In this document: piece after piece, positions 46,901 through 47,164 of the stretch
How positions within the stretch are numbered: the first letter of the stretch is position 1
Layout: each line of letters begins with the position of its first letter
DNA from: Eledone cirrhosa
Lineage: Eukaryota
NCBI GenBank assembly: GCA_964016885.1
Contig: OZ024763.1
Coordinates: 24,862,001 to 24,926,000, forward strand
Length of the DNA: 64,000 nt
Direction of reading: 5' to 3'
The notes under the pieces: model-generated
What the model was told of the DNA's origin: nothing
Seen by the model: only the letters and a program-made list of their open reading frames with translations
The model's database searches: none
Made by a program: the position numbers and the translations under genes

Positions 46901-46902
<2 letters not shown>

Positions 46903-47158
46903 AATGAAGTAATTCCGTCGGAAAAGTCCAGGAAAAAAGAGTGCTCTATGTAGGTAACAGAGCTTAATAGTTATGTAATAAACAACATAAGGCAATTATT
47001 CCATTTACCAGTGGTTTCTTGAAAGCAAAAAATTTTTTGCTTTCAAGAAACCACTGGTAAATGGGATAATTGCCTTATGTTGTTTATTACATAACTATTA
47101 AGCTCTGTTACCTACATAGAGCACTCTTTTTTCCTGGACTTTTCCGACGGAATTACTT

Positions 47159-47164
<6 letters not shown>
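46901..47164. repeat. Spacerless palindrome, 132 bp unique arms
   Basis: Axis at 47032/47033 (AAAAAA|TTTTTT); 1 mismatch; symmetry continues into flanking (TA)n(TG)n/(CA)n(TA)n. Confidence 0.97.

Follow-up and report, generated by a model that had tools for sequence, protein, structure and literature searches.

What kind of sequence forms a 264-bp palindrome that has no spacer and carries half of a hammerhead ribozyme on each strand? We addressed this question within a 64,000-nucleotide stretch of Eledone cirrhosa DNA (the window). This animal DNA is rich in AT and in microsatellites and is interrupted by one 200-N gap. The palindrome, referred to here as palindrome A, is probably a genuine, fairly young, noncoding insertion of a Hydra-type Penelope-like element (PLE), in which two copies of the last ~130 nt of the element lie head to head in a (TA)n tract.

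Geometry of the palindrome and the hammerhead half in each arm

The whole window was scanned for palindromes with an ungapped X-drop search (score of ≥14, spacer of 0 to 30). Three non-microsatellite palindromes were kept: A (46901-47164), B (62130-62245, with a 4-nt spacer), and C (26612-26698, with a 9-nt spacer). Palindrome A is the longest. Its 132-bp arms meet with a spacer of 0 and contain one mismatched pair (47000/47065), in agreement with the first-pass annotation of this DNA. Read from the center outward, the right arm starts with 14 nt that precede the hammerhead segment at 47047-47059 (GAA core, stem III of 4 bp closed by a 1-nt loop, and GUA site). A bulged hairpin (47102-47125) follows after 42 nt, and ~39 nt more lead into a microsatellite. 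Both arms stop at the identical base, and the one-sided 30- to 40-bp tail, which is optional in PLEs, is absent. The features are as follows, with the basis of each in parentheses.

46839..46902, + strand: left flank, (TA)22 then (TG)10, i.e., (CA)10(TA)22 read outward (anatomy)
46901..47032, - strand: left arm, read outward as a putative 5'-truncated PLE 3' end (palindrome scan)
46940..46963, - strand: bulged hairpin, mirror copy (structural descriptor)
47006..47018, - strand: hammerhead 3' half, mirror copy (motif search)
47019..47046, no strand: central hairpin spanning the junction 47032/47033, 14 nt upstream of the GAA core (DNA fold, -10.4 kcal/mol)
47033..47164, + strand: right arm, read outward as a putative 5'-truncated PLE 3' end (palindrome scan, anatomy)
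47047..47059, + strand: hammerhead 3' half with GAA, 4-bp stem III with 1-nt loop, and GUA site (H17 = 47059), 5' core absent (motif search, anatomy)
47060..47065, + strand: presumed stem I 3' strand, partner lost; 47065 (mirror 47000) is the sole difference between the arms (position, type I topology)
47102..47125, + strand: bulged hairpin of 4 bp, a 2-nt bulge on the 3' side, 3 bp, and a loop (structural descriptor, comparison by eye)
47163..47224, + strand: right flank, (CA)14 followed by (TA)17, either the tail of the element or the target microsatellite or both (anatomy)

The symmetry had been described as extending into the flanking microsatellites. The description carries weight only for the (TG)10 tract on the left and the (CA)14 tract on the right, which are perfectly matched over 18 bp. 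Read outward, the tracts are of unequal length in the two arms: (CA)10 versus (CA)14, followed by (TA)22 versus (TA)17. The (TA) tracts are uninformative on symmetry because they are self-complementary, and the unique DNA outside them shows no mirror symmetry. Since both flanks are microsatellite, a target-site duplication is unreadable. An AT-rich 11-mer present on both sides was considered as such a duplication and rejected, since similar runs recur within the AT-rich flank.

Inspection of the center confirmed that, immediately after the central hairpin, each strand reads GAA-ACCA-C-TGGT-A (47047-47059 on the + strand and 47018-47006 on the - strand), that is, the GAA core, stem III, and NUH cleavage site of a hammerhead. 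Within the window, a stem III of 4 bp with a 1-nt loop in this setting was found in the arms of palindrome A only, and it arose in 0 of 20,000 dinucleotide shuffles of the arm; a loosely defined minimal-hammerhead half near the center was obtained in 144 of 5,000 shuffles. No CUGANGA core was found near the motif on either strand. The nearest upstream core, at 46669, pairs with neither stem; it belongs to an isolated CTGATGA segment (46669-46690) that has 13 bases in common with the hammerhead family at 18211, lacks a 3' half, and does not complement the half in the palindrome. Completion in trans by another core of the window was also considered and rejected: the 17 CTGANGA sites offer at most 2 bp of stem I or II, and a search beside them for a stem I partner of 47060-47066 likewise gave no more than 2 bp. 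Because both strands have lost the CUGANGA core and, in stem I, the 5' strand, palindrome A is predicted not to self-cleave and to carry no working ribozyme. The hammerhead model was absent from the best 150 of 936 Rfam matches to the whole window and from all 40 matches obtained with E-value thresholds for 46400-47450, which comprised only sub-threshold miRNA-type stems; Rfam was equally silent on the intact hammerhead at 47262. The central hairpin is either stem II of the parent element or a product of inversion at the boundary between the 5' core and stem II. It is not assignable as the parental stem II, because any palindrome forms such a hairpin.

Assignment to the Hydra clade of Penelope-like elements

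The Hydra clade of PLEs is defined by one open reading frame (ORF) encoding a PLE reverse transcriptase (RT) with a C-terminal GIY-YIG endonuclease that lacks CCHH (available sections of PMC8557442). Palindrome A lacks this ORF, so its assignment to the clade rests on noncoding features, the first of which is the form of stem III. Among the 26 Hydra rows of File S2 of that paper, a stem III of 4 bp with a 1-nt loop (4+1) is present in 17, 4+2 in 6, and the equally long 3+3 in 3. The 4+1 form was seen in 0 of the 8 non-Hydra rows of this file, which are Chlamys/PLE-X rows and do not include Neptune, Poseidon, or Nematis. Stem III of the Hydra-1 row from Octopus bimaculoides is the same as that of the palindrome A arm except for the loop base. 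The Repbase Hydra consensi were compared as hammerhead rows only. The exact 13-nt stem III motif and the 15-nt motif of the neighboring hammerhead family each gave 0 hits in the available supplement of PMC8557442, in which line breaks may hide matches.

A second feature is the bulged hairpin downstream of the hammerhead half. By eye, rather than from a computed alignment with an E-value, positions 47115-47128 match Hydra-2_Ajap from the sea cucumber at 14 of 14 consecutive bases, and the match lies at nearly the same distance from the cleavage site (+56 versus +54). The hairpin was complete in three of the six new Hydra consensi of File S7 (PMC8557442, the part available), present with one mismatch in one, and not seen in two, again by eye. 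In the 584,131-character supplement, which also includes Naiad and Chlamys consensi, a 10-mer from the hairpin has two occurrences, and both are in Hydra consensi. We therefore read the half-hammerhead, as the first-pass annotation had, as the 3' half of a ribozyme, and more specifically as one matching the Hydra-clade PLE hammerheads and followed by a hairpin known from Hydra consensi.

The hairpin was also sought throughout the window with two structural descriptors. The strict descriptor, which requires AC after the 2-nt bulge in line with the published consensi, gave 4 hits, two of which are the arms of palindrome A, compared with a mean of 0.025 per shuffle. The relaxed descriptor, composed after some of the window hits had been seen, gave 8 hits against a mean of 0.75 per shuffle in 40 block shuffles. 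Six of these 8 (one in each arm of A, one in the long arm of B, and those at 36035-, 24475+, and 19711-) are located 25 to 84 nt past a hammerhead 3' half, an arrangement found 0 times in the 40 shuffles.

The insertion site is a third feature. Beyond the (CA)n tracts, palindrome A is bordered by (TA)22 and (TA)17, and (TA)n is the listed target for nearly all Hydra families, by one count 25 of the 27 with an entry in this field (PMC8557442, available sections); in a window as rich in microsatellites as this one, it is weak evidence. On the basis of the 4+1 stem III, the hairpin match, the 10-mer counts, and the (TA)n target, the arm most likely represents the 3' end of a Hydra-type PLE family that has not been described before. 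This family would be distinct from Hydra-1_Obim, since the sequence after the cleavage site does not match by eye. PLEs have been recently active in Octopus vulgaris, according to the accessible text of PMC13282606.

We searched the window for relatives of the arm. The closest in sequence is 13755-13671 on the - strand (33 of 43 bases; BLAST E value, 0.006); 0 of 2,000 shuffles scored as well, for a relative that had been chosen as the best hit. Its type I anatomy is complete: stem I is present, the core is a variant having C at position 4, stem II is long, and the 4+1 stem III is decayed. The arm did not score above shuffles (684 to 1,990 of 2,000 scoring equally) against the hammerhead-bearing elements at 19783, 24425, D, and 47262. 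It had been suggested that parent copies with an intact 5' core be sought. Among kin of the arm, two hairpin-bearing elements of the window (19783- and 36191-) do retain one, whereas the nearest relative by sequence has the variant core just described. No parent copy, ORF, or second copy of the family was found within the 64-kb window, and the arm gave no match among phages and plasmids (distant mode; E value, 0.01).

A six-frame scan of the window yielded 157 segments, 5 of which were submitted to Pfam. One weak match was returned, to GIY-YIG at positions 1-234 on the - strand (E value of 4.5e-4, below the Pfam cutoff), and this is the sole PLE-like coding remnant in the window. It has cysteines between its GIY motif and its YIG motif. 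The Hydra clade is described as lacking such cysteines in the available part of PMC8557442, so the remnant is not the parent. The remnant is 46 to 48% identical to two longer proteins that are PLE-like by eye, although Pfam assigned neither of them to an RT or GIY-YIG family. Short open segments at 56099-56422 (+) and 42639-42884 (+), which look similar to the 3' coding ends of LINEs, gave no Pfam match.

Inverted structures and competing explanations

In PLE insertions, the 5' end is often occupied by a copy that is inverted and 5' truncated, and a tail is present at one end only (available text of PMC8557442 and PMC8969392). Both arms of palindrome A are 5' truncated and point outward from the junction. 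The inverted geometry is no anomaly, having been described for PLE insertions before, and a PLE origin is what the first-pass annotation had missed. Compared with the Hydra-clade PLEs with C-terminal endonuclease (EN+) covered by PMC8557442 in the parts available (Hydra-1_Obim, Hydra-2_Ajap, and Penelope-13_HM), palindrome A lacks the ORF, and both of its copies are truncated inside the ribozyme, which leaves a pure palindrome. In the Penelope elements of Adineta vaga, head-to-head inverted repeats with junction palindromes are abundant and have been read as products of self-priming (PMC3846280). The inverted pLTR described there resembles palindrome A in its head-to-head copies, its junction palindrome, and a tail that is one-sided and optional, but it mostly adjoins a long or full element. 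The type I and minimal hammerheads of pLTRs (PMC4209133, available portion) agree with palindrome A in the GAA core, the palindromic form of stem III, and the NUH site, and they include the 5' core and stem I 5' strand that palindrome A lacks. The same paper reports pairs of hammerhead motifs on opposite strands, at distances of ~100 to 700 bp, in Schistosoma. Non-LTR retrozymes (PMC7229834 and bioRxiv 10.64898/2026.07.22.740005, each in the part available) likewise are short, noncoding, PLE related, and associated with a type I hammerhead; unlike palindrome A, which is head to head and incomplete, they are head-to-tail tandems with complete ribozymes. This kind of structure has already been described, and the PLE family appears to be new.

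Further inspection of the window supported the claim that palindrome A is an independent second case of this geometry, and four PLE-type cases and one SINE case are present in all. Arm identities in the other four are 55/56 (B), 42/45 (C), 95/97 with 9 gap positions (D), and 100/125 (E). In B, the left arm runs on for ~75 nt on the - strand through the bulged hairpin to (TA)n, and the right arm stops short. The whole of B, at 62053-62262, has the form of a classic asymmetric PLE insertion; it has a weak relative at 55248-55300 (E value, 0.002). The statement that palindrome A is unrelated to 62130-62245 is correct for the primary sequence (no BLAST match, and 1,026 of 2,000 shuffles score equally), but the downstream bulged hairpin is common to both. 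In D (36043-36329), one copy retains a complete type I hammerhead, located on the - strand with its core at 36191 and with 51 nt separating the cores, and the inverted copy begins at the palindromic stem III. Its one-sided extension of ~115 nt includes the bulged hairpin and ends in (TA)n, giving an overall span of 35927-36329. E (24136-24391) is an older inverted repeat with its center ~160 nt ahead of a hammerhead remnant. The region (24110-24520) leads into the hammerhead 3' half at 24425 and the bulged hairpin at 24475, and it and the intact hammerhead at 19783 (-) are of one family. C, which has no hammerhead, is a SINE fragment whose inverted copy lies across the 9-nt spacer.

Other hammerhead-like sequences and repeats were also observed in the window. 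Two copies of a type I hammerhead family with a long stem II (23910-24004 and 47262-47357) are 85% identical; the latter lies ~100 nt to the right of palindrome A and is unrelated to it in sequence. A minimal hammerhead family has three copies (18211 on the - strand, 26202-26321, and 55390-55543), at least one of which has an intact core; 51513 (-) is another, single candidate. For three of the six CTGANGA candidates (23910, 51513, and 18211), the anatomy script did not find a full type I fold; all three contain the core, then stem II, then GAAA. Two hammerhead-like folds in which core position 4 is C are present on opposite strands at 13755 (-) and 14238 (+), ~480 nt apart, and a 258-bp tandem duplication with the bulged hairpin lies between them. 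Clusters and tandem arrays of a SINE family occupy 15403-16625, 32084-32800, 42916-43531, 54897-56172, and 62737-62954. This family appears to resemble an octopus SINE.

We considered four other origins for palindrome A. The one that survives best, although we regard it as unlikely, is that a single truncated PLE copy was inserted first and the mirror arm was added later by the host through repair or replication fold-back, with a hairpin-capped break opened on replication and resolved in (TA)n. Opening of a hairpin-capped end yields zero spacer, which is what palindrome A has; the (CA)n tract lies within the symmetry, and SINE fragment C has the same fold-back form. Such an event does not account for both arms ending at the 3' boundary of the element with the unique flank left unmirrored. 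It also fits poorly with the finding that four of the five inverted structures consist of outward-facing PLE-type ends, B and D having one-sided element extensions.

Somewhat less probable again is a library or assembly artifact, in which a fold-back chimeric read was joined via the self-complementary (TA)n. The near-perfect arms are flanked by just such microsatellites, and PLE inverted structures are known to trouble assemblies (accessible text of PMC8557442). Elsewhere in the window, across the 200-N gap (9132-9331), 8138-9131 and 13703-15029 share blocks that are 94 to 99% identical, probably as a false assembly duplication or a haplotig. The arms of palindrome A differ by one transition and by the lengths of their (CA)n tracts, and the same geometry recurs at graded divergence in B, D, C, and E. 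These differences, and the agreement of the structure with known PLE biology, argue against an artifact.

There is little to recommend a palindromic nonautonomous element, MITE-like or PLE dependent, that moves as a whole 264-bp unit. Palindromic DNA elements of ~200 bp do exist, such as the frog Harbinger (PMC5625713, available part), and the target is TA rich; nevertheless, there is one copy in 64 kb, and the arms, in which RNA motifs of PLE 3' ends are present, terminate in (CA)n and not in a discrete terminal repeat. Least probable of all is a gene under selection for a hairpin RNA or miRNA, or a functional hammerhead acting in trans or as a dimer, despite the fold of -226 kcal/mol, the Rfam miRNA matches, and the ability of metazoan PLE hammerheads to act as dimers (PMC4209133, available portion): every miRNA match is under its gathering score (the best with 62.2 bits against a cutoff of 80) and reflects the long stem only, the single arm difference leaves no covariation, a dimer still needs the 5' core, and none of the 17 CTGANGA sites gives more than 2 bp of stem I or II.

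The predicted transcript of palindrome A is a single stem, a 130-bp hairpin of -226 kcal/mol. The earlier proposal that it would provide long double-stranded RNA (dsRNA) for ADAR or Dicer is plausible by analogy; no host gene was found at the palindrome within the window. In both A and B, the arms differ by A versus G. We considered A-to-I editing as the source of these differences and rejected it, since n is 2 and each site is preceded on its 5' side by a G, a context that ADARs disfavor. In frogs, palindromic repeats are heavily edited, and the octopus gave one of the two strongest hyperediting signals measured (PMC5625713, available part). In a highly editing animal such as an octopus, minimal PLE palindromes would be self-contained sources of long dsRNA. 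The risk of breakage rises with long arms and a short or absent spacer, and the human genome contains 718 near-perfect spacerless palindromes of >200 bp (available text of PMC7999016). Given these human counterparts, the survival of a young 264-bp palindrome is not strange.

The junction and a possible role for the ribozyme

The geometry, the motif matches, and the missing core of palindrome A are observations; from the clade assignment onward, every mechanistic step is one that we infer. Under the preferred origin as a PLE insertion, the GIY-YIG endonuclease of the element would nick a (TA)n tract, and the RT would prime at the nick and copy uncleaved RNA from its 3' end, first across the bulged hairpin, then across stem I and the cleavage site, and on through stem III. 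The RT would then stop 14 nt beyond the GAA, within the 5' half of the hammerhead. A second arm would be made at the stop point, followed by closure in (TA)n. The junction lies 27 nt upstream of the cleavage site, which implies that the copied RNA was uncut. In vitro, uncleaved RNA is the main PLE template and cleavage is dispensable, and the PLE protein cuts and extends both strands (available sections of PMC11167929). If the insertion arose in this way, there is about an even chance that the second arm was made by the cDNA folding back on the stem II hairpin and copying itself. Halting of a cDNA of the other strand at the same base, with end-to-end joining, is a lesser but substantial possibility, and snap-back on added A or T bases is the least favored of the three.

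The position of the stop can be read in two ways, and the evidence is ambiguous. In the first, the center of the palindrome would be the loop of stem II, and the cDNA would have been self-primed. In three hammerhead candidates of the window, 30 to 31 nt separate the cores, which places the center of the loop 15 to 15.5 nt before the GAA. The distance from junction to GAA is 14 nt in A and 15 nt in B. Self-priming at the loop is favored by the closeness of these values and by the long stem II of the nearest relative. The zero spacer is awkward for it, since a loop should be present unless that of the parent was self-complementary. In the second, the center would be the boundary between the core and stem II. 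The cores are 12 to 14 nt apart in 16 of the 26 Hydra rows by hand count (File S2 of PMC8557442, as available), and within the arm alone a 3-bp stem is possible before the GAA. The zero spacer would then mean either that two cDNAs stopped at the same base and were joined or that snap-back occurred on added bases. End-to-end joining fits the capacity of the PLE protein to cut and extend both strands. Whichever boundary is correct, the break lies inside the ribozyme in three of the four PLE-type inverted structures, which is a small sample. Such a break is not required, as the center of E is ~160 nt away and C has no hammerhead.

The formation of tandem and inverted PLE ends and the role of the hammerhead are stated to be open questions in the available text of PMC8557442. 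The Adineta study (PMC3846280) predates the hammerhead finding, and its junctions were not mapped onto ribozyme helices. A full-text search, largely of open-access papers, found in the sections available neither a mapping of PLE inversion junctions to hammerhead helices nor a description of a bulged hairpin downstream of Hydra-type hammerheads. We tentatively suggest, as a possibility more doubtful than not, that the hammerhead helices, whether or not the ribozyme cleaves, set the point at which the RT stops and folds back and so make the inverted pLTR junction, and that the bulged hairpin is a cis element, so far undescribed, at which the Hydra RT-endonuclease binds or initiates. The first part draws on the junctions of A and B just before the GAA and on the start of the inverted copy of D at stem III, and the second draws on the occurrence of the hairpin both in Hydra elements of sea cucumber and coral and at five loci of the window that are linked to hammerheads.

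Palindrome A is an unremarkable locus, the scar of a dead retrotransposon in a shape that has been described before; its value is as a mechanistic footprint. Minimal insertions of this kind record the switch point to the base, and a genome rich in them would allow the clustering of junctions at ribozyme helices to be tested by counting. If the helices do set the stop, PLE hammerheads would have a physical role.
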